In this document: in pieces, positions 1 through 37,102 of the stretch
Layout of the letters: each line of letters starts with the position of its first letter
Numbering within the stretch: the stretch's first letter is position 1
Assembly: GCA_965216785.1 (NCBI GenBank)
Contig: OZ244197.1
Span: 374,828-438,827 of the forward strand
Reading direction: 5' to 3'
From: Thermodesulfobacteriota bacterium
GTDB taxonomy: Bacteria; Desulfobacterota_D; UBA1144; Nemesobacterales; UBA2774
DNA: 64,000 nucleotides
Translations under genes and position numbers: made by a program
Notes under the pieces: model-generated
Databases searched by the model: none
The model's input: the letters and a program-made list of their open reading frames with translations, nothing else
What the model was told of the DNA's origin: nothing

Positions 1-3000
1 ATATGAGACTATTTCGTTCTCATCAAGTGGAGGGTCGCTCGAGAGCTGAATTTTGGGCTTTTCCGCAGTGCCCGTTATGTTTATATACACTTCGATGTTA
101 GATATCTCATAAAGCGCCCGGACATCGATAAACGGATTTATTATTTCCTTACCCCTGAAGCTCACCGTACCACCCTGGATGACAAAGAGTTTGCCCATGA
201 ACTGATATTCACCCCTTACTACATCTATGTTTCCGGTCACGATGTAAGGCTCTTTTAATTTCTTATTGATCTCGAGCCTACCCTCAACTTCGATATTAGC
301 ACCGCTTCCCTTAACCCACGAGTCTTTGGGAATATCGACATTAAGCTTCATTTCCACATACTCTATGAAATAATCTATTTCACCTTTTCCGGTATATATA
401 AACTCCTCGCGCTCAGCTTCTCTCTGGTTTACGAATTTGATATTCTCTACGACCTTAATGGGCTTTTCGGGAACGATCACCTCTATGTCCCGTGCTGTTA
501 TGTCTCCTGTGATGAGAGCGTTTAACATTTCTCCCTTAACGTCGATCTGCCCGTCCATCCTGGCCGTAACCTCAGCCGGAGTAGCCTTTACCATGAGTCC
601 GTTCAAGGCGCCCTTACCCGAGTACTTGAGAGTACGGAAATCCACACTGCCCTCAAACGTTCCTTCCCCTTCCTCAGTCAGTATTTTAAGCGGGTGGAGT
701 TTTCCCTTCTTACCGCTCATTTCAAAAACGGCCTCTGGTATTCGGAGCTTATTCGCAAGAGAGTACATTTGAAAATTTACGTCTTTTACTTCTATCTTTC
801 CGTTTATATTAGGGTCCATTCCGCTGCCCGACGCACTCAGATCGACAATTAATCTCCCGTCAATAGTTTTAAGCTCCTCGTTAAATGCTATGAGCGGGCT
901 AAGATCAATACCGTCCGATTTTATATTCGCGTTGAACGTAGTGTTCTGAAAGCTTTTTTCGAAGTCCTTTTGAGTAAGATCGACCTTGGCCTTTGCCGTA
1001 GCCGAAAGGATGGACTTTGAGTTCTCAAATACGTGAAAGCCAAGATCAATATCGCCTTTTGAGAATAGTACATCTAGGGTGATCTGATCGCTATTAAAAT
1101 TCATGTACTGCAAGTTACTCGCCTGAATACTGGCGTTTACATCAGGGAAATTGAGAGACGGCCCGAAATTGAGTACGCCAGAGACCTGACCTTTTAGGGG
1201 AAATTGAAAATTGAGGAGCTCGGAAACATCTAGAAGATCGATCTTTTTGAGCTCGATTTTTGCTTGAAGAGTGTTGTCGAATCCGACTTCGGCATCGCCT
1301 ATTATGTAATTATCCTTATGATGTAAATTAAAAGAGCGAAGTGTCAATCTATCCTTGAATATCTTTACATCCACAGGCTCCTTATTTGTAAGTACCGACT
1401 TTTCGATGTTGAGGTTGATATTATCGACTTCAAGAGCGGTCTCATCCCCCATCAGATCCCTGAGCTTAAAGTCCATTGAATATTTCCTCGTCTTAGTTTC
1501 GAGAATCTTCAAGTTACCGTCCACACCGCCTGCCGCGCTCTTTGCGTTGAACTTTACGGTCTCGATGTCTCTTCCATTAAAAAAAGTGTCCCTGAGTGTT
1601 CCGCCTGCGCGTAGACTCAGGTCTGAAAAATCAAAATTAGTGGCGCCCGACAAATCGAACCTTCTAATTTTCAATGCATCGCTGTCATAAGAGAAATCTA
1701 AACCTGTTGTTGTAAATGTGAGCTTAGGCGCATCAATGTCACCGCTCAATTTTCCTTTGGCGTTCAGAGAGCCTTGTAGCAGAGCATCCTGGGTAAATGT
1801 AGAGACGACGCTTAGGTCTTTAATATCGATATCGTAATTAATCCCGCGGGTGCCGGGACCTCCGAATGTCCCGCTCGCATTGGCGTTTATCTTATCGGAA
1901 TTAAGGACAAGCGATTTTAAAGTGAGGACGTTGTTACTAAACGAGGCATCGATTCTCCCACGCTCCAAACTCATATCAAATATACTCGAGGGCTCAAACT
2001 CGGCCTTAACCGAGCCTTCGAAATTCTGTGGAAACTCACCCTCTAAACCTAAAACACCCTTAAGCTTGAAGCTCGAGTTCAGATCGCTCTTGTATAGATC
2101 GTCCTCCAAGAGTGGGGCCAGATTGGCGTTTAAAAATTTTACATCGAAATCATAGTCCAGTGTGGAGTCGGCCAGTTTAAGCGGCCCGGTCAGATTTATT
2201 TCACCTGCGGTTCCGCTTACAATTTTAAGGTCTTTAAAATCAAAAAGCGCACTGAAAGACTCTGAGTCGCTCCAGCTACCCTTAAAGTTGATATCAGAAT
2301 TTACGTCCGCACTGTATTTTTGCGCTATTTCTTCATCACTAAGCTCCTCTGATTGCTGAAAGAGCTTTAGCACCTCCGCAGTCTGAAGCGCCTCGAGAGA
2401 TATATTTATATCAACAGTGTTATTCCCGCTTCCCTCCATCATCTCTTCCAAATAAAGACTCCCTTCAAGAGATGCCTGACCGAAATCGGTATTTAGCGTA
2501 CCCTCGGTAAAATCCAAATCATTACCCTTAATGATGATCCTATCTACCCCACCCCCGATTTTTGTATCCATAAGCAGCGAATCCACAAGCTTAAGCTCGG
2601 CTGTGGCGTCAATCTCTTCATAGTCCTTATATAGACCCCTGGTTTTTATCTCAAGATTAACACTTCCCGCATCTCCAAGATCAATACCCAGAGCTGAGGC
2701 TTTGAAATTGAAGCTCGGATTTTCAAACTTTCTGATCGTGCCCTCTAGAGAGACGTCCGCACGACCGAGAAGAAAGCTCAGGTGCTTTATACTGAGCTTG
2801 TCCATTTTTTCGTTTATTGAGTAAGTAGCTTTTCCTGAAGCTTCATTAAGGTGTACCTCGAAGTTCTCCTGATCGTGATATCTGGCAATCAGATCACCGT
2901 TATCGAGTTCCACCTCAATATTCTCTATCAATTTCAGCACCTTGAGGCTCAAATCCAGGTTGTTGAGCTCGTACTCTATGAGCTCGTTCTTGATACGGTC

Positions 3001-3489
3001 GTTTACGAATATTCTGACATCTGACCCCTTGGCGTTTTGAATAAAGACGTTCCAATCTGTGGGATCACGCCACTCGCGGGGCTTGAAAGGCTCGAGCACC
3101 TCGTAGTTCCATGATTTGTCAGGGTAATAAATCAGGTTTAGGCGCAGCCCCTTTGTAGTCAATTTTTCTATCGGGATCAGCTTACTGAATAGAGTGGAGC
3201 TATCGAGCATCAATGGAAGGGAATAGTCTATAAAAATTTCATCTATATCGAGAAAGTCCTCGTTGTCGATTTTAAAGCTGACGTCCTTGAGCACAACTCC
3301 GCGTAAAAAATTCCCTTCTATGCTGCCGATGTAGAATTCCTGATCGGTGAGTGCATTAATTACGGAGTTTGCGGATACTCTGACGAATTCCCTAAAATAG
3401 CGGGTCTGTACCAAAAAAAACAGGATTGCCGCTAATAAAGCAAGTATCAATAGGAATATTCCGATAGGCTTGAGTACGGTTGAGCGCAT
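1..3489 (-). CDS. AsmA/TamB-like large envelope protein, N-terminal ~1160 codons (3' end runs off the window edge)
   Basis: Not in the ORF track because no stop lies inside the window. Manual reverse-complement translation from ATG at 3489 gives MRSTVLKPIGIFLLILALLAAILFFLVQTRYFREFVRVSANSVINALTDQEFYIGSIEGNFLRG...; the first ~60 codons were checked base by base, and reading on further by eye I met no stop (rest not re-verified base by base). The ORF track lists no complete minus-strand ORF and only short plus-strand ORFs in this span. N-terminal TM helix then a long beta-rich region, same architecture as CDS 29021..32722. Confidence 0.7.
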   Translation of the reverse strand, partial: MRSTVLKPIGIFLLILALLAAILFFLVQTRYFREFVRVSANSVINALTDQEFYIGSIEGNFLRGVVLKDVSFKIDNEDFLDIDEIFIDYSLPLMLDSSTLFSKLIPIEKLTTKGLRLNLIYYPDKSWNYEVLEPFKPREWRDPTDWNVFIQNAKGSDVRIFVNDRIKNELIEYELNNLDLSLKVLKLIENIEVELDNGDLIARYHDQENFEVHLNEASGKATYSINEKMDKLSIKHLSFLLGRADVSLEGTIRKFENPSFNFKASALGIDLGDAGSVNLEIKTRGLYKDYEEIDATAELKLVDSLLMDTKIGGGVDRIIIKGNDLDFTEGTLNTDFGQASLEGSLYLEEMMEGSGNNTVDINISLEALQTAEVLKLFQQSEELSDEEIAQKYSADVNSDINFKGSWSDSESFSALFDFKDLKIVSGTAGEINLTGPLKLADSTLDYDFDVKFLNANLAPLLEDDLYKSDLNSSFKLKGVLGLEGEFPQNFEGSVKAEFEPSSIFDMSLERGRIDASFSNNVLTLKSLVLNSDKINANASGTFGGPGTRGINYDIDIKDLSVVSTFTQDALLQGSLNAKGKLSGDIDAPKLTFTTTGLDFSYDSDALKIRRFDLSGATNFDFSDLSLRAGGTLRDTFFNGRDIETVKFNAKSAAGGVDGNLKILETKTRKYSMDFKLRDLMGDETALEVDNINLNIEKSVLTNKEPVDVKIFKDRLTLRSFNLHHKDNYIIGDAEVGFDNTLQAKIELKKIDLLDVSELLNFQFPLKGQVSGVLNFGPSLNFPDVNASIQASNLQYMNFNSDQITLDVLFSKGDIDLGFHVFENSKSILSATAKAKVDLTQKDFEKSFQNTTFNANIKSDGIDLSPLIAFNEELKTIDGRLIVDLSASGSGMDPNINGKIEVKDVNFQMYSLANKLRIPEAVFEMSGKKGKLHPLKILTEEGEGTFEGSVDFRTLKYSGKGALNGLMVKATPAEVTARMDGQIDVKGEMLNALITGDITARDIEVIVPEKPIKVVENIKFVNQREAEREEFIYTGKGEIDYFIEYVEMKLNVDIPKDSWVKGSGANIEVEGRLEINKKLKEPYIVTGNIDVVRGEYQFMGKLFVIQGGTVSFRGKEIINPFIDVRALYEISNIEVYINITGTAEKPKIQLSSDPPLDENEIVSY

Positions 3490-3694
3490 GTCTCTAACTC
3501 TGAATTATAACATAAGGGCCTAAAAAAAGAATTAAAATCGGGCTTTTACAGCTAAAACGAAAACCGAAACTTAATATTCATAGCTACAAAGACTTAAGCC
3601 CTGAACTCTACAATTAAATATACCCAACACCTGGGGGAAAAGAGCTGTATTGAGGGCTTATGTGCTTATCTTAACCCTGTCTTAATATTAGAAC

Positions 3695-26464: not shown

Positions 26465-27148
26465 CTATCCCTTCTGTATTGCTTTTGCGGTATATAAACT
26501 GACCAGCCGCGCTATCAGAACGGCTATGAACAGCTGTCCCGCCAGGGCTTCGAGGACCGATAGAATCCTTCCAAGAGGGGTTATGGATGTAATATCACCG
26601 TATCCCAGGGTGCTTAAGGTGGTGTAGCTGTAATATACGAGCTCATTCGTATTTATATCACCCGTAAGGCCGAGCCTTTCGGAAACGAATACAGCGCCCG
26701 GAGACAGATATTCGATACTTCCGTAGATTGTGACCCAAAGGAGCCCCAAAATTAAATACAAACACACAGCGCCGTAAAGAGTATCCTGGGTAATATCCTT
26801 GGCTTTTAGGATATGGTTAAGGAGGATAGTCGTGACAAAGAAGAAATAAAGGATGCTCGCGAATATACTTTGTGTGGAGCTTGCGAAAATCCAGTCGGTA
26901 AAAACCCAGGGCATTCCCAATATGAGAAGTATTATGATGGTTTTCTTGTTTCTGCCTATTGCATATACCCCAAGCAAGAATACAACGTTGCTCGCGATAT
27001 TTATTACATAATAACCGTATTTGACCCCTTCCAGCACCGCAGAGAGTATCAAGAGCAAGATGATCGATACCATAAAGTTAAACATTTTATATTTAGTAGA
27101 GCTTAGAATTATGTGTACGGAGCCTGAAGACTGCTTGTCCCTATTCAT
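26465..27148 (-). CDS. potassium channel family protein (TxGYGD selectivity filter)
   Basis: 227 aa polytopic membrane protein with K+ filter TLSTLGYGDI before the last TM helix. Confidence 0.7.
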   Translation of the reverse strand: MNRDKQSSGSVHIILSSTKYKMFNFMVSIILLLILSAVLEGVKYGYYVINIASNVVFLLGVYAIGRNKKTIIILLILGMPWVFTDWIFASSTQSIFASILYFFFVTTILLNHILKAKDITQDTLYGAVCLYLILGLLWVTIYGSIEYLSPGAVFVSERLGLTGDINTNELVYYSYTTLSTLGYGDITSITPLGRILSVLEALAGQLFIAVLIARLVSLYTAKAIQKG

Positions 27149-27298: not shown

Positions 27299-28144
27299 CT
27301 ATCCGTCAGATAGCGTGCATCCTGCCGTATCCACGGTTGCCGTCCCGCTTATGTTTACCGCGCTCCTGCCGCCGCTTATCGTGCAGTTGTTATTCTGCGG
27401 GTCTATGATTACCGTTGAGTTCCCCGCGGCATTAATCCCGAACTGATTTACCGATTCGATCAGCACGCTGTTATTTACTGGGTTTGAAGACTCACCTATT
27501 TCAACGAAGGACTCATTTAAAGTTATAACTGCGTCTCTATTGGCTCTTAGAATAATCCCCTCGTCGGCTTCAATAACGACTGATCCCGAATCCTGGGTGC
27601 GCACACCCTCGCGGCAGTCGGTAATGTCGACACTCTTGACTCGTATAGCTGCCGAGCTCGACCCCGTGGAAATGATGCAGTCCCCGCCGTTACCATCCAT
27701 GATGAAATCTATAAGTGATTCATTGAGTGTAAACTGGCTGTCGTTTCGAACAAAAAACGGGTCTTGAAAGACCTGCCAGCTATCTATTATGATAAGCGTC
27801 GGGTTTTGCTGGAGGGTAAATTCCATTACTATAGTGCTGTTGTCGGTGACTCTGATGTTAGCCCTCTCCGCGTCAAACGTGCTGGATTCGAACCTGAGCG
27901 TTACGTTTCCTGTAAAAGAGCGGAACCTGAGAGTAAAATCACCGCTGCTGTCTGTAGTAGTTCTATCGAGCCTCGAGCTGTCTTCTGTGACTGTGACGGT
28001 AAAAGTGCCGAATAGACCGAAATTGGTAATAGACCCGTTAAGTACTATATTCCCGCTTCCGTCTCCTGTGTTACAACCAGAAATGATAAAAAAGGAAAGA
28101 ATCGTGACGAATACACAAAGAGCTGTACTTTTATACATCACCAT
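27299..28144 (-). CDS. hypothetical lipoprotein, Ser/Thr/Asn-rich
   Basis: 281 aa; signal peptide with lipobox (FFIISGCN); many N-x-S/T tripeptides; no recognisable catalytic motif. Confidence 0.55.
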   Translation of the reverse strand: MVMYKSTALCVFVTILSFFIISGCNTGDGSGNIVLNGSITNFGLFGTFTVTVTEDSSRLDRTTTDSSGDFTLRFRSFTGNVTLRFESSTFDAERANIRVTDNSTIVMEFTLQQNPTLIIIDSWQVFQDPFFVRNDSQFTLNESLIDFIMDGNGGDCIISTGSSSAAIRVKSVDITDCREGVRTQDSGSVVIEADEGIILRANRDAVITLNESFVEIGESSNPVNNSVLIESVNQFGINAAGNSTVIIDPQNNNCTISGGRSAVNISGTATVDTAGCTLSDG

Positions 28145-28270
28145 ATCCTCCTGCTCGATTTGTATAACACCCTCTTATCTAACCAGCATAAGTAATAATT
28201 TATGGAAAGTAAAGCCGGAAATTACTACAGGAAAATCAGTCTGAAAAGATGAGTTTTGAGACAGGAGGCA

Positions 28271-28315
28271 AAAAAACCTCCGGGCATCCTCTCTAAATTA
28301 TGAGAATGCCCGGGG
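28271..28315 (-). terminator. putative intrinsic terminator closing the AsmA-like operon
   Basis: On the minus strand: stem CCCCGGGCAT / ATGCCCGGAG (about 10 bp, one G-U) with an 18-nt loop, followed by a T-run (plus-strand AAAAAA 28271-28276); starts 24 nt after the lipoprotein stop. Confidence 0.45.
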
Positions 28316-28338
28316 ATTTTATAAGTTTTAAGTAAATG

Positions 28339-29007
28339 CTATCTCTCGCTTTTTCTAACACTCGCGAACTGCCTTCCGGCCTCCGGGAGCACTTTATCTA
28401 TATTCTCTTGCGTGGGCTCAAGGTTATTGATCTCGACTATGGCCCTCGCCATTCCTCTGATAATTACCCTGCGGTCGGCGTTCTCCGCGCTAAAAGCCTG
28501 CTGCTGTGAGGACGTGAGGTTGCCAGCTTTTACCAACAGCCCCAGGTTGCCCTCTCTGACCAGCCCGTCATTGAGCATCGCGTTAATAACATTCTTACGT
28601 TTGGCTCTGCTTTTATAGGCGTTAATGACCTCGGGCATGCTTCGAATTTTCTCAGTGATTTGTCCCGAGATATTCCCCTGAGCCCAGGCATAGTCGCCAA
28701 AATCGAGCGTTACTTTATTTCTAAGTACAATTACTTTTGTCTCCGATTTGAGCGTAGGTTCTTCCTGGTATTTGATGCTGCTCTCAGGGGCTGGAGTGGG
28801 TTTTACAGCTTCTCCGTCCGAAGGCTCGGTGTCTTCAGCAGCATTTGCTTCGTCTTCTAGCAGGAACTCTTCCTCAAGGCTTGAGTAGGCGTCCCTTACT
28901 TCTTCTGCGGGGAAGTACACGTTTACTGTAATAGTCGCGCACGATACGAGGTAAAAACATAACGTGAGAGGTAAAAAATAAAGCGCTCTAAATATTGAAT
29001 TTCCCAT
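28339..29007 (-). CDS. lipoprotein, candidate YnbE-like/YdbL-like partner of the AsmA-family protein
   Basis: 222 aa; lipobox (YLVSCAT); begins 13 bp after the AsmA-like gene on the same strand. YnbE/YdbL (DUF1318) resemblance is inference from gene position and is not verified. Confidence 0.55.
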   Translation of the reverse strand: MGNSIFRALYFLPLTLCFYLVSCATITVNVYFPAEEVRDAYSSLEEEFLLEDEANAAEDTEPSDGEAVKPTPAPESSIKYQEEPTLKSETKVIVLRNKVTLDFGDYAWAQGNISGQITEKIRSMPEVINAYKSRAKRKNVINAMLNDGLVREGNLGLLVKAGNLTSSQQQAFSAENADRRVIIRGMARAIVEINNLEPTQENIDKVLPEAGRQFASVRKSER

Positions 29008-29020
29008 TGATTTGCCTCCT

Positions 29021-32000
29021 TTAATTCGTTTCTATTGTGGGCCCTCCTGTGAGCGCCCTTTTGGCCAGCTCCCTGATTACAGAGATTAAATGACTTATCG
29101 ATATAGAGTTCTGTCTGGGATCGGCCTGTATATTCAGGTTTTTGAAACCCAATATTGAGTTTGAAATATTAAACTCTTTAAACGTTATAACACCGTCATT
29201 AATATAACCAGAAATATCCCCTTTATCATAACCCCTGGATGAGCCGAGTATAAGCCTCTCTCTGGCGCCCAGCTTATCCAGTAGAGCCTCGCCTACCTTT
29301 CTCTGCTCTTTCGGTGAATTGGTTGCCCAGAATTTAAAGGGGCCGTCTATAGTATTTAAATCGCCGCCTTCCCCAGTGATCCAGGCAAGGCCGTTCACCC
29401 TTCCCGTTATGTAGTCTTTTTCGGATGAAATGCTTTTTGATATCGCCTCTAGACTGATCTCGTCGAATAAAAAAGAAATATTGTAGTTACCGTTTCCCTG
29501 AAAATAGTAGATACCGGCTCCGTATAAACCACCTCTATAAATCTTGGATGTGAGTTTTTTCAGGTTTATTTCACCTCTGTCCACTTCGAGCTGGCAGTCG
29601 ATGTCCTCGATTTTAATTATGCCGTAGTTAAGCTCGCCGATTTTCAGATAATCTGAGTCTTGAGATGTGTCAAAATCCTTTACGGAGCGGAGGAATTTTT
29701 TATATATGGATTTATTGAGTTTGAGTTGATCCCCCATGAAAGAGCTAAGAGGGTTTTCGGAATCGGCATCGTCCTTTATTGTGATAGTACCGTAAACCTC
29801 TTTTATTCTAAGCTCGGTACCCGAGAGCTTCCCTGTATATGCCCCGCGGAGAACCCTGAGCCTGCCGCCCCATGTTTGGTTAGGATAGAAGAGGTTGTAT
29901 AACACCAGCTCAAGATCGGCTTGCCCCTGTGTCTTGGCATTTGCCGCAGACTCAGGCAAAAAGGGCCGCAAGACATTCATTGCAACCGGTATTTGAATAC
30001 CCGGTATACTGAGCTCCAGCTGCCTTTCTTCATTAAGTGAATTTGTCATTTTCCCGGTAAATCCTAGCTCCATTGAGTCCTTACCCACTATAAACCCCTT
30101 TTCTATAAATAAGGTTTCACCCACTGTCTTTGCGTATAGCTCACCTCTATAGGTATAGCTTGTACCGTTATTAGTAAGACTTATGCCGTTTGCCGTAAGT
30201 TTGCCGCTACCCTCGGGCAGAGAGTTTTGAGGCAAAAGTCCCGTAAAATTAAAATTAGTCTTTGCTATATTCGCGCTCATACCGCCTGTAGAGAGAGAGG
30301 CTCCGCTGAGCTCGATGTCGGTGTCGATCTTAACACGGGGCCCTGTGGTATCGACGTCAATCTTGCCGGCAAGCGCTCCGTTTGAAAACTCGCCTGTAAT
30401 ATTGTCCAGGACAAGACCGGTTTCATTTGGCGTTACCAAGACCTTAAGATCTTGGATTGGCTGAGATAGCACCTCGAGCTTTGCGGCTTCGACGCGGCCT
30501 TCCCAGTCAATTGCACCCGAGTTGGGATCGTTTATTGTGAAGTCGCCCGAGATAGTATTTGAGGTAACTTTTCCATCAAGACCCGTGAAGATACTTTCCT
30601 TAAATTTAGACAGGAACGGGTAGCCGCCCTGATCTCCCATACGGAGCGTCAGGTCGTCCGTCTCGAACCGCCCGATCGCGCCTACATCGGCTTTAACTTT
30701 GCTTAGCTCGATGAAGTTGCCTAGATATTTATAATCCCACTCGACACTCGGGAACTCTATTGCTTTAAATCTGCCGCCCTGCCCCTTAACGTGGCCTGAA
30801 AACCCGTCTCTCCCGCTGTTTTCTATACTGAAGCTTTCGTTAAACTCAGACAGCGAAATGTCTTTGCCGAGAACCTCAAAGTTACTTCCTGTAGATGCCA
30901 TATTGATAGACCAGTCACTTCCAAGGGTAAGTGAAAACGAGAGCTTTTTTACCCTGCCGTTTTTAACTAGATAATCTCCGAATGTAAGACTCTCATAACG
31001 TAGCCCCTCGTTTTCAATCGTTATAGTGTCTCTATACACTCCTGCGGAAGCCTCGGTCTTATCTTCAGATAGAAATTTAAATGCGAGATTTTCTACAGAC
31101 TCTACCTTCGATAGCTTAAACGCTCTGCCTTTACTCAGGCTCAGGATAACGTCCCCAGCTGTAAAGGATATATCCGCATCGTAGTCACCTGAGCCGCCGC
31201 CGAAATTTGCAGTCGCCGTCAGAGCAGTGCCCTCGATGTCGAATGGAATGACGCTTTTGGGGGTTTCTTTCAAATTTAAATTCTGCCCGGTGAGAAGACC
31301 TTTGAGCTTAAAGCCGCCGCCGCTTAAGTCAAAACCCATTGATCCCGAGAGCACACCGTCCATAAAGCTCCCTTTAAGAGATGAAAGAGAGATATCGGTT
31401 TTACTCCAGTTTTCGGTTGCGGAAATTTTTACATCCGATGAAATATCTGCTATTGCTCCTGTCTTTACCCAGTTGAATGTATCCGCCGCGCACTTTCCGG
31501 TTGAAATTATAGGGAAGCTATCACCTATTGTGAGAGTCTGGTTAATTCTTAAATTACAGTTGAGCCCGGATAGTTCAAGATCTTCTTCAGTCTTTTTATA
31601 GTTAAGATCACTGGTGAGAACTTCACCTTTTATAGAGAATTTTCCTTTTTTGCCGGAACCGCTGATTGTTACATTCTGGGCTGTCGCACTCCCTGAGATC
31701 TCATCCTGCTCTAAACTCGGCAGTAAATTCTTGAGCGCGCTCAGGTCTTTAGCTTCGGCGGATCCGTTGATATTGATTATCACATCCTCTTCTTTGACAT
31801 CGGCGCTTCCTGTGAAGCTGCCCTCCATGAGTCCGTTTATGCTCAGATCGAGTTTTTCAAGAGCGGCGGTTTGTAGAGACGGGTTATATTGCAGATCATA
31901 GTCGATCATAAGCGCGGATTCTGCCGAGTCCGCCCTTTTATCCAGGGGGTTTACGCTCATCAGTCCGTATGCATGTAATACATCCGTCAATTCAAAATTT

Positions 32001-32722
32001 ATTCGCGCGTTTGCCTCCAGAGTTGAATCTTGGTTATTCAAAAGACTCTTATTCCCTAGTGCTAAGTCTCTCGTATTTATATCCAATAGTCCTGTTGTTA
32101 AATCAGTCTTTGATTGTACTTTACCTTCAATATCAAATTTACGACCTAAAGCACTAATATCACCGATAAAGTCAACTTCGCTTGACTGCTTTTCGTTATT
32201 ACTGTCGATGCCGATAGCTAGTGATTTTGAGTAGAGTGTGAGATCGGGGCTTATCTGACAATGAGCGTCCGTGATTGTAACTCCTTGAATTACAACCCGA
32301 GAAGGTCTTTCTTTATCGTCTTTATCGCTTTTAATCAGCTCAAGGAGATTTTGTATATTGTCCCGAGTTGCCTGAAGATTCGGGTCCTCAACAATAACCT
32401 CATTAATAATCAATCTCTGCTCTAAAAGAGAAGAGATGATAGCGGGGTCTACTGTAATTCTTTTTACTTCGGCGATCTTAACATTATTTTGTAAAGGGTC
32501 CGTGATCGTAAGTCCGCTCAATCTGAGGTTGAACAGGGGATCTATACCGATCTCTTTAAATTCAATAGAATAGCCGAGCTCTTTGGATAATTTCTCAATA
32601 TATCCAGGCGCTTCTCCACTGAGCTTTCTGTCTAATATAATGTTAACGGATATTAATGCTGCTAGGATTAAAACGGCAGCAATAACAAGAATTTTCAGGA
32701 ACCCGTGTCTCGAAAGGGTCAT
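29021..32722 (-). CDS. AsmA/TamB/YdbH-like large envelope protein
   Basis: 1233 aa; N-terminal TM anchor (FLKILVIAAVLILAALISVNIIL) then a very long beta-rich, low-hydrophobicity region typical of AsmA-like proteins. Confidence 0.75.
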   Translation of the reverse strand: MTLSRHGFLKILVIAAVLILAALISVNIILDRKLSGEAPGYIEKLSKELGYSIEFKEIGIDPLFNLRLSGLTITDPLQNNVKIAEVKRITVDPAIISSLLEQRLIINEVIVEDPNLQATRDNIQNLLELIKSDKDDKERPSRVVIQGVTITDAHCQISPDLTLYSKSLAIGIDSNNEKQSSEVDFIGDISALGRKFDIEGKVQSKTDLTTGLLDINTRDLALGNKSLLNNQDSTLEANARINFELTDVLHAYGLMSVNPLDKRADSAESALMIDYDLQYNPSLQTAALEKLDLSINGLMEGSFTGSADVKEEDVIININGSAEAKDLSALKNLLPSLEQDEISGSATAQNVTISGSGKKGKFSIKGEVLTSDLNYKKTEEDLELSGLNCNLRINQTLTIGDSFPIISTGKCAADTFNWVKTGAIADISSDVKISATENWSKTDISLSSLKGSFMDGVLSGSMGFDLSGGGFKLKGLLTGQNLNLKETPKSVIPFDIEGTALTATANFGGGSGDYDADISFTAGDVILSLSKGRAFKLSKVESVENLAFKFLSEDKTEASAGVYRDTITIENEGLRYESLTFGDYLVKNGRVKKLSFSLTLGSDWSINMASTGSNFEVLGKDISLSEFNESFSIENSGRDGFSGHVKGQGGRFKAIEFPSVEWDYKYLGNFIELSKVKADVGAIGRFETDDLTLRMGDQGGYPFLSKFKESIFTGLDGKVTSNTISGDFTINDPNSGAIDWEGRVEAAKLEVLSQPIQDLKVLVTPNETGLVLDNITGEFSNGALAGKIDVDTTGPRVKIDTDIELSGASLSTGGMSANIAKTNFNFTGLLPQNSLPEGSGKLTANGISLTNNGTSYTYRGELYAKTVGETLFIEKGFIVGKDSMELGFTGKMTNSLNEERQLELSIPGIQIPVAMNVLRPFLPESAANAKTQGQADLELVLYNLFYPNQTWGGRLRVLRGAYTGKLSGTELRIKEVYGTITIKDDADSENPLSSFMGDQLKLNKSIYKKFLRSVKDFDTSQDSDYLKIGELNYGIIKIEDIDCQLEVDRGEINLKKLTSKIYRGGLYGAGIYYFQGNGNYNISFLFDEISLEAISKSISSEKDYITGRVNGLAWITGEGGDLNTIDGPFKFWATNSPKEQRKVGEALLDKLGARERLILGSSRGYDKGDISGYINDGVITFKEFNISNSILGFKNLNIQADPRQNSISISHLISVIRELAKRALTGGPTIETN

Positions 32723-32810
32723 ACAGAAGATATTATATTTAGTATTGCCTAATTTAAAAGGAGAATTTAAAAGAGGCTAAAAACCGGAGCGCCCGCTGAC
32801 AGGCAATCAA

Positions 32811-33227
32811 CTAGGGATTATCGCTAACGAGCTCGACAGTTCTCGCTTTTATGACATTTTTCACTTTATACAGAAAGTATTTTTTCTCCTTTCTGAACTT
32901 ACCCGTTATACGAACAGTATCGCCCTTTTCGATCGGTAAGTGCTCGTCCTCATAATACACTCCGAGCTTGTTGCCTTGAGAGTCTTTCAATTCGAAAACC
33001 GTAAAATCCTCTCCCTTACTCGATTTCGTGTACTTTACTTTCTTTACTACGCCCTCAAGAGTGACTTTCCTGCCGTCGTATTGCTTGGGCTCTGATACCA
33101 CTTCTGCGATATTCGAGGATATGATTTCTTCGGTGGCATTATTCGGAACTAGGCTGTTTCCCGATTGCCCGAAAACCGCCTGAAAGGGAAATGATAAAAG
33201 TAACAATATAACGAGTGTACGTTTCAT
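32811..33227 (-). CDS. secreted OB-fold-like protein (YgiW/BOF-like)
   Basis: 138 aa; signal peptide, then a YDGRKVTLEGVV...FELKDSQGNKLGVY...GDTVRITG pattern resembling periplasmic OB-fold proteins. Confidence 0.5.
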   Translation of the reverse strand: MKRTLVILLLLSFPFQAVFGQSGNSLVPNNATEEIISSNIAEVVSEPKQYDGRKVTLEGVVKKVKYTKSSKGEDFTVFELKDSQGNKLGVYYEDEHLPIEKGDTVRITGKFRKEKKYFLYKVKNVIKARTVELVSDNP

Positions 33228-33401: not shown

Positions 33402-34202
33402 ATGCCCTCATCTATGATAAGAAAGATAAACGGACTGCTCAAGAGTGAGAGCCTGGGGAAAGTCATACATTATTTTGACGAGGTTGATTCAACAAACGAT
33501 ACTCTTTACGAGCTTGCGTCAAAAGGCGCTTCTGAGGGTACCGCGGTTATAGCAGACGCACAAACCCGTGGAAAGGGTAGACTGGGCAGAACCTGGATAT
33601 CGCCCGGCGGGCATAATCTATATTTATCCGTACTCTTAAGGCCCGGGATGGGAGCCACCGAAGCTGCACTCCTGACTCTGGTTGCTTCAATAGCCGTATA
33701 CGAGTGTTTAAAAAAAACCGGCATTCATAACGGGGCTATAAAATGGCCAAACGATATCCTGATCGACAAGAAAAAAATAGCGGGCGTACTAACGGAGATG
33801 CAACCAAAAGGCGATAAAGCGGATTTTGTAGTTGTGGGTATAGGGGTGAATGTGAATATGTCCAGAGCTGTTATTAACAGAGAAATGGACGACTTTGCCA
33901 GACATGTTACCTCGGTTAGCGAGAATTTGGGCAGGGAAGTGGACCGGGCAAAACTTGCTGCCGATTTACTTAAGGAACTTGAAGATTGGTATAGCACAAT
34001 GAGACTGCGGGGAAAACCCGCTATTTTGAAGGAATGGATGGATAGATGGGGCGGCCTAAACCAGAATGTACGTGTAAGAATTGAGGGTCAGGAAGAATTT
34101 CAAGGAACAGCCCAAGGAATAGATGAAAACGGCCATTTATTGGTTCAAAGAGAAAACGGCGAAACAGTAGAAGTAATAACGGGTGATATATCTATTATTT
34201 AG
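33402..34202 (+). CDS. birA: biotin--[acetyl-CoA-carboxylase] ligase (no N-terminal HTH domain)
   Basis: 266 aa; BirA catalytic motifs (QTRGKGRLGRTWISP, KWPNDIL, KIAGVLTE). Confidence 0.85.
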   Translation: MPSSMIRKINGLLKSESLGKVIHYFDEVDSTNDTLYELASKGASEGTAVIADAQTRGKGRLGRTWISPGGHNLYLSVLLRPGMGATEAALLTLVASIAVYECLKKTGIHNGAIKWPNDILIDKKKIAGVLTEMQPKGDKADFVVVGIGVNVNMSRAVINREMDDFARHVTSVSENLGREVDRAKLAADLLKELEDWYSTMRLRGKPAILKEWMDRWGGLNQNVRVRIEGQEEFQGTAQGIDENGHLLVQRENGETVEVITGDISII

Positions 34203-36502: not shown

Positions 36503-37102
36503 ATGTTAAGGAATATACTGAGAAAGAAAAAAGGCGAGAAAGGGTTTACCCTTATCGAGCTTTTGGTTGTTGCAGCGATCATCGGCATCCTGCTCGCAAT
36601 CGCTATCCCTAACCTTATAAAGGCAAGAATATCCGCAAACGAGGCAAACGCAAGAAAGGCCTTGCAGACCCTTAGAGACGCGGAAGGGGAGTATTTCGAG
36701 CAAGATCTTAACGATGATGGTGAGAGAAACTACACCGGATTTATTGGGGATCTCAGCACTGCTGAATCACTCCGTAATCCGGAAGGAACAAGTGATGAAG
36801 AGGACGCACTCATAGATTCAAGCTTTGAGGGTGCGGACGATGGAGAAGATCCCGCTGCGGCAGGCTGCGCGGACTCAAAAGCCGGGTACTGCATAGGCTG
36901 GGATGCCGCTACCATCGAGGCAGCTGCAGGTAACCTTGATGATTTCGGATGGGAAGCTTCTATGACAAGTTTCCGTAAGACAGGTAGAAAAGACTTCGCG
37001 GTTTACGGAGACGGCGTTATAAGGTGCACAGTTACCGGAGCCACCAACTCAGGCGATCCTGGTGACTTTAATGCCGATCGTACAACCGGCGCTTGCGACT
37101 AA
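36503..37102 (+). CDS. type IV pilin (PilA-like prepilin)
   Basis: 199 aa; basic leader ending KG then FTLIELLVVAAIIGILLAIAIPNL (prepilin peptidase site, Glu at +5); C-terminal Cys residues; GGAGG RBS 8 nt upstream. Confidence 0.85.
   Translation: MLRNILRKKKGEKGFTLIELLVVAAIIGILLAIAIPNLIKARISANEANARKALQTLRDAEGEYFEQDLNDDGERNYTGFIGDLSTAESLRNPEGTSDEEDALIDSSFEGADDGEDPAAAGCADSKAGYCIGWDAATIEAAAGNLDDFGWEASMTSFRKTGRKDFAVYGDGVIRCTVTGATNSGDPGDFNADRTTGACD

Follow-up and report, generated by a model that had tools for sequence, protein, structure and literature searches.

An envelope operon pairing a long AsmA-like protein with a YdbL-domain lipoprotein: a candidate two-protein variant of the YdbH-YnbE-YdbL bridge

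We analyzed a three-gene operon in a 64,000-nucleotide (nt) stretch of the genome of a Thermodesulfobacteriota bacterium (GenBank assembly GCA_965216785.1, contig OZ244197.1, positions 374,828 to 438,827), hereafter called the window. The operon lies on the minus strand and encodes a small secreted OB-fold-like protein, a 1233-amino-acid (aa) AsmA-like protein, and a 222-aa lipoprotein, which carries a YdbL/DUF1318 domain behind a short N-terminal strand-helix module. In Escherichia coli, an intermembrane bridge is encoded by the ydbH-ynbE-ydbL operon, b1381-b1383 (PMC11126948, PMC13464000). In our judgment, the AsmA-like protein and the lipoprotein probably constitute a two-protein variant of this bridge, in which a long AsmA-like protein is combined with one lipoprotein that bears both a YnbE-like module and a YdbL domain. 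By this analogy, the lipoprotein apparently covers the job that is split between YnbE and YdbL in E. coli. The elements of the operon are as follows.

32811-33227, minus strand: gene 1, the secreted OB-fold-like protein (138 aa, from the list of open reading frames), first of the unit
32723-32810, minus strand: spacer of 88 nt between the OB-fold gene and the AsmA-like gene
29021-32722, minus strand: gene 2, the AsmA-like protein (1233 aa), a putative inner-membrane-anchored intermembrane bridge
29015-29020, minus strand: strong Shine-Dalgarno sequence of the lipoprotein gene, AGGAGG, 7 nt before the ATG and within the 13-nt gap
28339-29007, minus strand: gene 3, the lipoprotein (222 aa), with a strand-helix module, a linker, and a YdbL/DUF1318 domain
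28270-28315, minus strand: intrinsic terminator, with a 10-bp G+C-rich stem (~28315-28277) followed by T7 at 28276-28270

The three genes were confirmed to form a real cell-envelope operon. The initial annotation described three co-oriented genes with gaps of 88 and 13 bp and a terminator at their end, and this was borne out by the coordinates of the open reading frames (ORFs) and by the folding of the terminator. The stop codon of the lipoprotein gene occupies 28339-28341 and the hairpin begins ~23 nt further downstream. The 77-nt region containing it folds at -27.5 kcal/mol, compared with -13.1 ± 3.1 kcal/mol in dinucleotide shuffles (z = -4.7; 0 of 200 shuffles were as good), and a simple terminator scan overlooked it because its loop is longer than 8 nt. 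A GAGGA Shine-Dalgarno sequence precedes the ATG of the 138-aa gene. The 88-nt spacer contains no convincing terminator or promoter and folds weakly (z = -1.6), and a promoter scan of the operon could not pin down any promoter. The OB-fold gene is probably co-transcribed with the AsmA-like gene, because their synteny is conserved.

The lipoprotein can be divided into three parts.

28840-28941, minus strand: N-terminal module (residues 23-56), comprising Cys23 (lipobox LVSC), the strand ITVNVYFP at 26-33, and the helix AEEVRDAYSSLEEEFLLEDE at 34-56
28681-28839, minus strand: variable acidic and proline-rich linker (residues 57-109), ending in a mildly hydrophobic patch and A107-W-A109, with Q110 next
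28342-28674, minus strand: YdbL/DUF1318 domain (residues ~112-222), truncated and without the GWWIQ..GxW..K tail

Direct scans of the 222-aa protein gave no DUF1318 match, either to PF07027 in Pfam (E ≤ 10) or in NCBIfam, and BLASTP comparisons with E. coli YdbL and YnbE were not significant. Among its clade members, 13 of 33 matched PF07027 weakly (best E 0.0029), and one relative at NCBI is annotated as a "DUF1318 domain-containing protein." An exhaustive profile search of 1.84 billion representatives yielded 136 matches to the lipoprotein family, which fell into three groups: (i) proteins of ~200-250 aa that aligned throughout, (ii) short proteins that aligned at ~105-220 only, 21 of 22 of which passed Pfam DUF1318 (best E 1.6e-20), and (iii) short proteins that aligned at ~5-80 only, most of which look like truncated or frameshifted gene calls. 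When the window clade was compared with the 22 stand-alone DUF1318 relatives using hhalign, the probability was 99.9% (E 5.4e-31, residues 124-221), and a hidden Markov model (HMM) of these relatives scored 104 bits on the window lipoprotein ORF. Furthermore, the top PDB sequence match of a profile of 29 diverse family members was E. coli YdbL (28oj_A, E 8e-4), and the C-terminal domain has the YdbL fold. Because profile and structure methods detect the domain, the negative direct scans reflect a problem of sensitivity and not its absence. The 222-aa lipoprotein therefore carries a YdbL/DUF1318 domain, by sequence profile and by fold, and the DUF1318 domain that the initial annotation proposed to look for in this protein is present.

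The functional residues of the domain were compared with those of E. coli YdbL, in which E35, N58, and R61 are required for function and the tail residues W104 and K107 are predicted to contact YdbH (PMC13464000). E152, N176, and R179 of the lipoprotein align with E35, N58, and R61 and are invariant in the clade alignment; the position equivalent to R28 is Leu. At its C-terminus, the window-clade protein terminates in ...FASVRKSER, and a tail of ~17 residues (A..GWWIQ...G.W..K), which includes the equivalents of W104 and K107, is missing. For related loci, the lipoprotein family alignment was scanned against one genome per species (GTDB representatives), which gave 80 loci. The tail is present in 71 of these 80; it is absent in the eight closest species (L002-L009) and in one probable frameshift, and is kept in more distant Dadabacteria and in all other phyla sampled. 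The YdbL tail has thus been lost in the Dadabacteria subclade of the window. Neither a second DUF1318 gene nor a separate YnbE-like gene was found in the window.

The N-terminal half of the lipoprotein raises the question of YnbE. In E. coli YnbE, the strand I30-I38 augments the YdbH sheet, and the C-terminal helix K45-T56 is bound by YdbL (PMC13464000). The window lipoprotein gene begins 13 nt after the AsmA-like gene, and its product has a strand and then an acidic helix after Cys23. The ITVNVYFP strand begins two residues after this Cys, and the helix is acidic and amphipathic and was predicted with a low predicted local distance difference test (pLDDT) score. Among the 29 diverse members, whose overall identity is 30-48%, N29, F32, and P33 are invariant and C23, A40, L44, and E45 are ≥ 90% conserved; the lipobox-plus-motif pattern occurs in 76 of the 80 loci. 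We conclude that, in position and architecture, the module is equivalent to YnbE.

A shared origin of the module and YnbE is no more than plausible from sequence comparison. PF13617 (YnbE) matched neither the window protein nor 45 relatives, and an enteric YnbE HMM gave ≤ 2.4 bits on the window lipoprotein, which is no match; the YnbE-like domain that the initial annotation expected an HMM search to reveal was thus not found. In eight hhalign set-ups, the comparison of the module with YnbE gave E values of 0.0022, 0.07, 0.088, 0.01, 0.05, 0.0013, 0.0043, and 0.017, with probabilities of 0.7-18%, and nearly every alignment placed strand on strand and helix on helix. As a positive control, two types of YnbE found each other by hhalign at E 2.8e-5. 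When PF13617, a model of 34 positions, was applied to the positional YnbEs of canonical operons, it detected nothing in two of them (L088 and L087) and gave ~11 bits in two others (L103 and L096). The silence of this model is therefore weak evidence, because it misses most of the positional YnbEs in canonical three-gene operons. It recognizes only the proteobacterial type of YnbE; the positional YnbEs of other lineages (C...KPIHITIDVNVKVDKALDDFF) are missed, and these do not have the second strand of E. coli YnbE. The lipoprotein had been suggested to be a fused or divergent version of the E. coli partners, and fusion is the best reading, with the DUF1318 part established and the sequence homology to YnbE only marginal (E 0.0013-0.09).

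We infer the following arrangement from these data, from subcellular locations and lipid transport to strand docking, intramolecular helix binding, and fusion history. The 1233-aa protein would be held by its N-terminal helix in the inner membrane, with a repeating beta-groove stretching across the periplasm; the family, at ~1000-1250 aa, has the length of YhdP and not that of YdbH. The 222-aa protein would reach the outer membrane by export, lipidation on Cys23, and sorting. By beta-augmentation, the near-invariant ITVNVYFP strand would then dock onto the highly conserved C-terminus of the AsmA-like protein and so fasten the bridge to the outer membrane, in the way that YnbE fastens YdbH. The acidic helix (residues 34-56) would be held by the protein's own YdbL-like domain through the flexible linker of ~55 residues, and until docking, this capture would prevent self-association of the strand, a role that a separate YdbL has in E. 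coli. The gene itself probably originated when a small lipoprotein gene was joined to a downstream ydbL gene, with the A-x-A|Q motif of the linker as the old cleavage site. In the Dadabacteria subclade, the YdbL tail is lost and a periplasmic OB-fold protein has been added to the operon.

Of the other explanations, the one that survives best, although we regard it as unlikely, is that the lipoprotein is just a membrane-anchored regulator or chaperone of the YdbL type for the AsmA-like protein, with a module that is an anchor or sorting element and not a YnbE equivalent, and that the long bridge reaches the outer membrane alone, as has been suggested for YhdP. YdbH is not long enough to cross the periplasm and depends on YnbE, YhdP is the only E. 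coli paralog considered to have the necessary length, and a YdbH chimera of YhdP length works without YnbE (PMC12447247). The partners of the lipoprotein, at 1006-1247 aa, are of YhdP length, and the similarity between the module and YnbE is statistically marginal, both of which agree with a tethered chaperone. However, the invariance of N29, F32, and P33 and the ≥ 90% conservation of C23, A40, L44, and E45 from Dadabacteria to Geobacter and Nitrospira would not be expected of a mere tether. Furthermore, the demonstrated ligand of YdbL is the YnbE helix (PMC13464000), a similar helix is conserved just after the strand here, and canonical-looking YnbE-DUF1318 fusions exist.

The linker between the two halves contains one conserved feature, the A-x-A motif A107-W108-A109 (nt 28681-28689). 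Among the window protein and the 80 loci, A109 occurs in 81 of 81, A107 in 75 of 81, and Q110 in 68 of 81. The mean hydropathy of the 12 residues before A109 is +0.28, compared with -1.78 for the remaining linker, and A-x-A|Q aligns with the signal-peptidase site of stand-alone DUF1318 proteins, ~14-15 residues before their MP(D/E)V motif. The simplest reading is that A-x-A|Q is a relic of the YdbL signal peptide that was left by gene fusion, and its invariance could also be compatible with a present role, either as a processing site or as a structural element. If it were a processing site, the lipoprotein could be a polyprotein that is cleaved at A-x-A|Q after export, freeing a soluble YdbL-like protein (~113 aa) from a YnbE-like lipopeptide (~86 aa). 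The constancy of A109 and A107 within an otherwise highly variable linker, the hydrophobic patch before the site, and the correspondence with the signal-peptidase site of the stand-alone proteins speak for this explanation. However, the patch is short and is interrupted by charged residues in the window (VIVLRNKVTLDFGDY), and is therefore unlikely to lie in the membrane, where signal peptidase I acts. A fusion scar, or a structural element where the domain begins, would explain the motif equally well. We consider such cleavage improbable.

Fusions of this kind were also encountered outside the family. To calibrate the YnbE tests, a metagenome scan for stand-alone DUF1318 genes was used (loci L086-L111). 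It recovered canonical three-gene operons, in which the middle gene encodes a 60-71-aa lipoprotein (C...KPIHITIDVNVKVDKALDDFF), and also single ORFs of 168-185 aa with a canonical-looking YnbE N-terminus (CAPTINIATPQPLKADIAVRLDV...) and a Pfam-positive DUF1318 domain. These YnbE-DUF1318 fusion ORFs are located as follows.

L100, 586-1116: YnbE-DUF1318 fusion ORF
L102, 3818-4324: YnbE-DUF1318 fusion ORF
L104, 3770-4276: YnbE-DUF1318 fusion ORF
L105, 3710-4267: YnbE-DUF1318 fusion ORF

Five fusion N-termini, those of L100, L105, and three similar metagenomic proteins, matched the positional YnbEs at E 1.8e-4. The four listed ORFs look like independent examples of a YnbE-YdbL fusion, and the fusion is therefore a real, recurrent architecture.

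Two regions of the 1233-aa protein are central to the proposed bridge.

32633-32701, minus strand: N-terminal hydrophobic helix FLKILVIAAVLILAALISVNIIL (residues ~8-30, read from the translation), the presumed inner-membrane anchor
29024-29482, minus strand: C-terminal ~150 residues (1081-1233), the best-conserved part and the presumed outer-membrane-proximal docking end

The protein matched Pfam AsmA (PF05170) at residues 8-232 with 49.4 bits against a cutoff of 29.8 (E 4.3e-13), and the Pfam YhdP N-terminus more weakly. The hydrophobic helix sits where the AsmA match begins, and the translation has the layout of the superfamily, a single predicted N-terminal anchor followed by a long predicted periplasmic region. 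A profile built from 49 full-length orthologs from syntenic loci was compared with four E. coli paralogs using hhalign. The probability was 94% for AsmA (E 1.2e-7, 417 columns), 45% for YhdP, 7.7% for TamB, and 0.4% for YdbH. The orthologs matched Pfam AsmA, DUF748, and the YhdP N-terminus, and the YdbH-like model weakly; the C-terminal half of a close ortholog (in L007) scored 25.5 bits with the latter, a little short of the cutoff of 26.3. Orthology with YdbH was rejected at the sequence level: PF11739 had no match at E ≤ 1, BLASTP gave E 0.1, and the family HMM of the large protein did not match E. coli YdbH. TamB was likewise rejected as its identity, because the protein has no TamB/DUF490 match and a true TamB is encoded elsewhere in the window. 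The latter ORF (1-3504, minus strand) is partial, running off the left edge, and its residues 943-1168 match Pfam TamB/DUF490 (PF04357) at 7e-43, so that no fewer than two AsmA-like systems are encoded in the genome. By these comparisons, the 1233-aa protein is best classified as a member of the AsmA-like superfamily with a family of its own, neither a YdbH ortholog nor TamB; the earlier label "AsmA/TamB-like" holds in its first half, and strictly does not in its second.

The last ~150 residues stand out in conservation: their mean column identity in the 49 full-length orthologs, which come from several phyla, is 0.51-0.62, against 0.13-0.43 elsewhere, and they are nearly invariant in the five closest homologs. 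An AlphaFold2 model of residues 34-1233 was unreliable (mean pLDDT 34.9; predicted TM-score 0.27) and is unusable because the alignment, with five close homologs, was shallow. Long beta strands make up nearly all of it, which is compatible with a beta-groove without demonstrating one. No solved structural relative of the protein was found by sequence search.

The AsmA-like superfamily also includes GspN, which reportedly (PMC12802150) moves lipoproteins or other acylated cargo to the cell surface. By analogy, the 1233-aa protein could transport such cargo, with the lipoprotein as cargo or adaptor, and weak GspN/T2SSN matches are in line with this idea (TIGR04411 at 0.0056 for the large protein; Pfam T2SSN at 6e-4 to 0.01 for orthologs). 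All of these matches, however, fall well short of the thresholds and are probably due to the AsmA-like fold that the families share. Type II secretion system genes do not flank the operon, and the sole family-level partner is the YdbL domain, which is known from the YdbH-YnbE lipid bridge. We therefore judge that transport of non-lipid cargo has very little likelihood.

We also analyzed the conservation of the gene pair across species. By record title, the taxa are Dadabacteria/Thermodesulfobacteriota, Nitrospirota (Nitrospira and Thermodesulfovibrionales), Methylomirabilota, Acidobacteriota, and Geobacteraceae/Desulfuromonadales. An AsmA-like homolog lies immediately upstream of the lipoprotein gene, on the same strand, in 72 of the 80 loci, with a median gap of 18 nt and in at least four phyla. 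This arrangement is more than chance, because so many loci in other species share it with the same strand and short gap. One locus was too short to judge, and in 7 of the 79 evaluable loci (Acidobacteriota and some Geobacter/Desulfuromonadales) another gene lies upstream. In the few Acidobacteriota loci examined, the lipoprotein is present and the AsmA-like gene is not adjacent. In two Geobacter loci (L059, 3106-3951; L065, 7208-7942), the fused lipoprotein follows another lipoprotein of 244-281 aa (...LAGCTGYKSQFVSFRPPEAY...) and not an AsmA-like gene; an AsmA-like partner in these genomes, if there is any, must be encoded elsewhere. The core unit is the AsmA-like/lipoprotein pair, because the OB-fold gene is lineage-specific and the 281-aa gene downstream is conserved in one locus only. 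Thus, the statement in the initial annotation that a lipoprotein directly after an AsmA-like gene fits the YdbH-YnbE-YdbL pattern was supported by the co-occurrence analysis.

Partner length differed between the architectures. The AsmA-like partners of the fused lipoprotein are 1006-1247 aa long (L101, L107, L108, and L002-L081), and in operons with split genes (L088, L090, L091, and L103) the four intact AsmA-like genes encode 719-1025 aa; a further one, cut by the contig end (L094), encodes at least 879 aa. This hints that a long bridge needs a single anchoring strand and not a stack of YnbE, although the sample is small and one split-gene partner (L103, 1025 aa) overlaps the range of the fused type. 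That the three ORFs are functionally unrelated and merely share a transcript is scarcely credible: bacterial genes are commonly co-oriented with short gaps, and linkage of the OB-fold gene is confined to one lineage, but the conservation of the AsmA-like/lipoprotein pair in 72 of 80 species-representative loci and its parallel with the experimentally validated ydbH-ynbE-ydbL operon (PMC11126948, PMC13464000) make functional unrelatedness of the pair very unlikely.

Several results weigh against a two-protein variant of the YdbH-YnbE-YdbL bridge. First, kinship of the N-terminal module with YnbE is only plausible, with hhalign probabilities of ≤ 18% and no signal from the enteric HMM or PF13617. 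Second, the large protein has no specific similarity to YdbH by Pfam, BLASTP, hhalign, or family HMM, and the three-dimensional model of the bridge has low confidence (AlphaFold2 mean pLDDT 35). Third, a bridge of this length might need no outer-membrane adaptor. Fourth, the loss of the presumed bridge-contacting tail in the window clade does not fit simply with a conserved contact between YdbL and the bridge. Finally, the lipoprotein occurs without an adjoining AsmA-like gene in 7 of the 79 evaluable loci. Taking these points together with the evidence above, we still consider the two-protein bridge to be probable. The broader proposal is more tentative and rather doubtful at present, namely, that there is a phylum-spanning, hitherto undescribed class of bridges in which the functions of YnbE and YdbL were brought into one lipoprotein by an ancestral fusion, with A-x-A|Q as a fossil of the YdbL signal peptide or as a live processing site that frees the chaperone once it has been delivered. 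This class would comprise Nitrospirota, Thermodesulfobacteriota including Dadabacteria and Geobacteraceae, and Methylomirabilota; in the Acidobacteriota loci examined, the lipoprotein is present but unlinked.

The first gene of the operon encodes a 138-aa protein with a cleavable signal peptide (MKRTLVILLLLSFPFQAVFG|Q). Its residues ~39-125 gave sub-threshold matches to CcmE (2e-4), OB_YrrC, tRNA_anti-codon, and NCBIfam stress_OB_fold (3.5e-4), and the same sub-threshold pattern of OB families was seen in seven of nine orthologs, so that a generic OB fold is likely. No Pfam BOF match was found, and stress_OB_fold reached 20.7 bits against a cutoff of 35; the "OB-fold-like" description is therefore retained, and the specific assignment to BOF/YgiW is not. 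The protein resembles BOF and YgiW-YdeI in being small and secreted, in its single OB-fold-like barrel, and in its weak stress_OB_fold match, but it is below every family cutoff and its matches are spread over CcmE, tRNA_anti-codon, and OB_YrrC. Only in 10 loci, all of the Dadabacteria type, does the OB-fold gene stand before the pair, 36-110 nt ahead of the AsmA-like gene in the eight loci with an intact AsmA-like ORF, and it is a lineage-specific addition to the pair.

The G+C content is ~45%, and the closest relatives of the window proteins are those of uncultured Candidatus Dadabacteria/Thermodesulfobacteriota. Upstream of the operon, birA (33402-34202) is transcribed divergently. Just past the terminator lies a gene for an unrelated 281-aa predicted lipoprotein (27299-28144, minus strand) with a sub-threshold CarboxypepD_reg-like match (30.4 bits; cutoff 32.3). 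It was rejected as a member of the operon, being beyond the terminator and a neighbor in a single related locus, L005. Encoded at 26465-27148 on the minus strand is a membrane protein of 227 aa that has an Ion_trans_2 domain, of the potassium-channel type with two transmembrane segments (Pfam 8.6e-12), and its gene is syntenic in several Dadabacteria loci (L005, L007, and L009). At 36503-37102 on the plus strand, we recognized by eye a 199-aa protein with an N-terminus like that of type IV pilins or pseudopilins (KGFTLIELLVVAAIIGILLAIAIP).

How phospholipids are delivered to the outer membrane in Gram-negative species is still being worked out, and almost all of this work has been done in E. 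coli and Pseudomonas. The ydbH-ynbE-ydbL system itself is a known paradigm, and sequences of the present lipoprotein family are already in databases, mostly as "hypothetical protein." The two key papers on YdbH-YnbE-YdbL in E. coli (PMC11126948, PMC13464000) and a paper on P. aeruginosa do not mention YnbE-YdbL fusions; where the latter writes of "fusion," engineered chimeras of YdbH and YhdP are meant. In our literature search, "DUF1318" turned up in a single unrelated paper, and neither a YdbL fused to a lipoprotein nor the pairing of such a protein with a long AsmA-like protein other than YdbH was found to be described.

The finding is unsurprising in kind, but it is useful for annotation and as a natural experiment on the function of YnbE and YdbL. 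Many "hypothetical" proteins become annotatable as YdbL-domain lipoproteins, which present Pfam and NCBIfam models miss, and in phyla that have been little studied, the gene pair can serve as a simple genomic marker of a second AsmA-like system in addition to TamB. YnbE self-multimerizes and has resisted isolation (PMC13464000); if our interpretation is correct, a YnbE-like strand-helix that is covalently tied to YdbL would be a tractable structural object for studying how the chaperone holds the anchor. The YdbL module would also extend beyond short bridges of the YdbH type, and the tail-less Dadabacteria form and the split-gene forms, with partners of 719-1025 aa, would be natural dissections of the YdbL contacts that matter.

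Compared with known systems, the operon is most readily set beside YdbH-YnbE-YdbL. Both have an AsmA-like gene followed by the coding sequence for a lipoprotein, in the window a putative outer-membrane one, and for DUF1318/YdbL, both have the YdbL fold, with E35, N58, and R61 conserved in the window lipoprotein, and both have a strand and then an acidic helix, which in YnbE contact YdbH and YdbL, respectively. In contrast, E. coli uses three proteins and the window two, with the lipoprotein segment and the YdbL domain in one polypeptide; YdbH has 879 aa and the window bridge 1233 aa; and the strand starts 2 residues after the lipidated Cys in the window and 12 in YnbE. The second strand of YnbE is absent from the window lipoprotein, the W104/K107 tail is missing in its clade, and the window operon has an OB-fold gene, whereas the E. 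coli ydbH operon has none.

YhdP of E. coli and P. aeruginosa is similar to the window bridge in length (1266 and 1233 aa), in its N-terminal membrane anchor, and in the weak match to the Pfam YhdP N-terminus, and both would be long enough to cross the periplasm unaided. However, the two do not match significantly past the N-terminus (hhalign 45%), and YhdP has no dedicated lipoprotein or YdbL partner gene. The TamB/TamA system (TAM) shares the AsmA-like superfamily and, if the proposed arrangement is correct, a bridge that is completed at its C-terminus by an outer-membrane partner; it differs in that the window protein has no DUF490/TamB domain and its partner is a YdbL-domain lipoprotein and not an Omp85 barrel. 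Finally, the metagenomic three-gene operons of the L088 type have the same gene order of AsmA-like protein, lipoprotein, and DUF1318. The N-termini of the metagenomic YnbE-like proteins are canonical (C-x-P-T-I..P..I.I..V), in contrast to the CAxITVNVYFP module of the window family, and one of the metagenomic fusions (L105) has an AYAQ motif in its linker, as in the window family.

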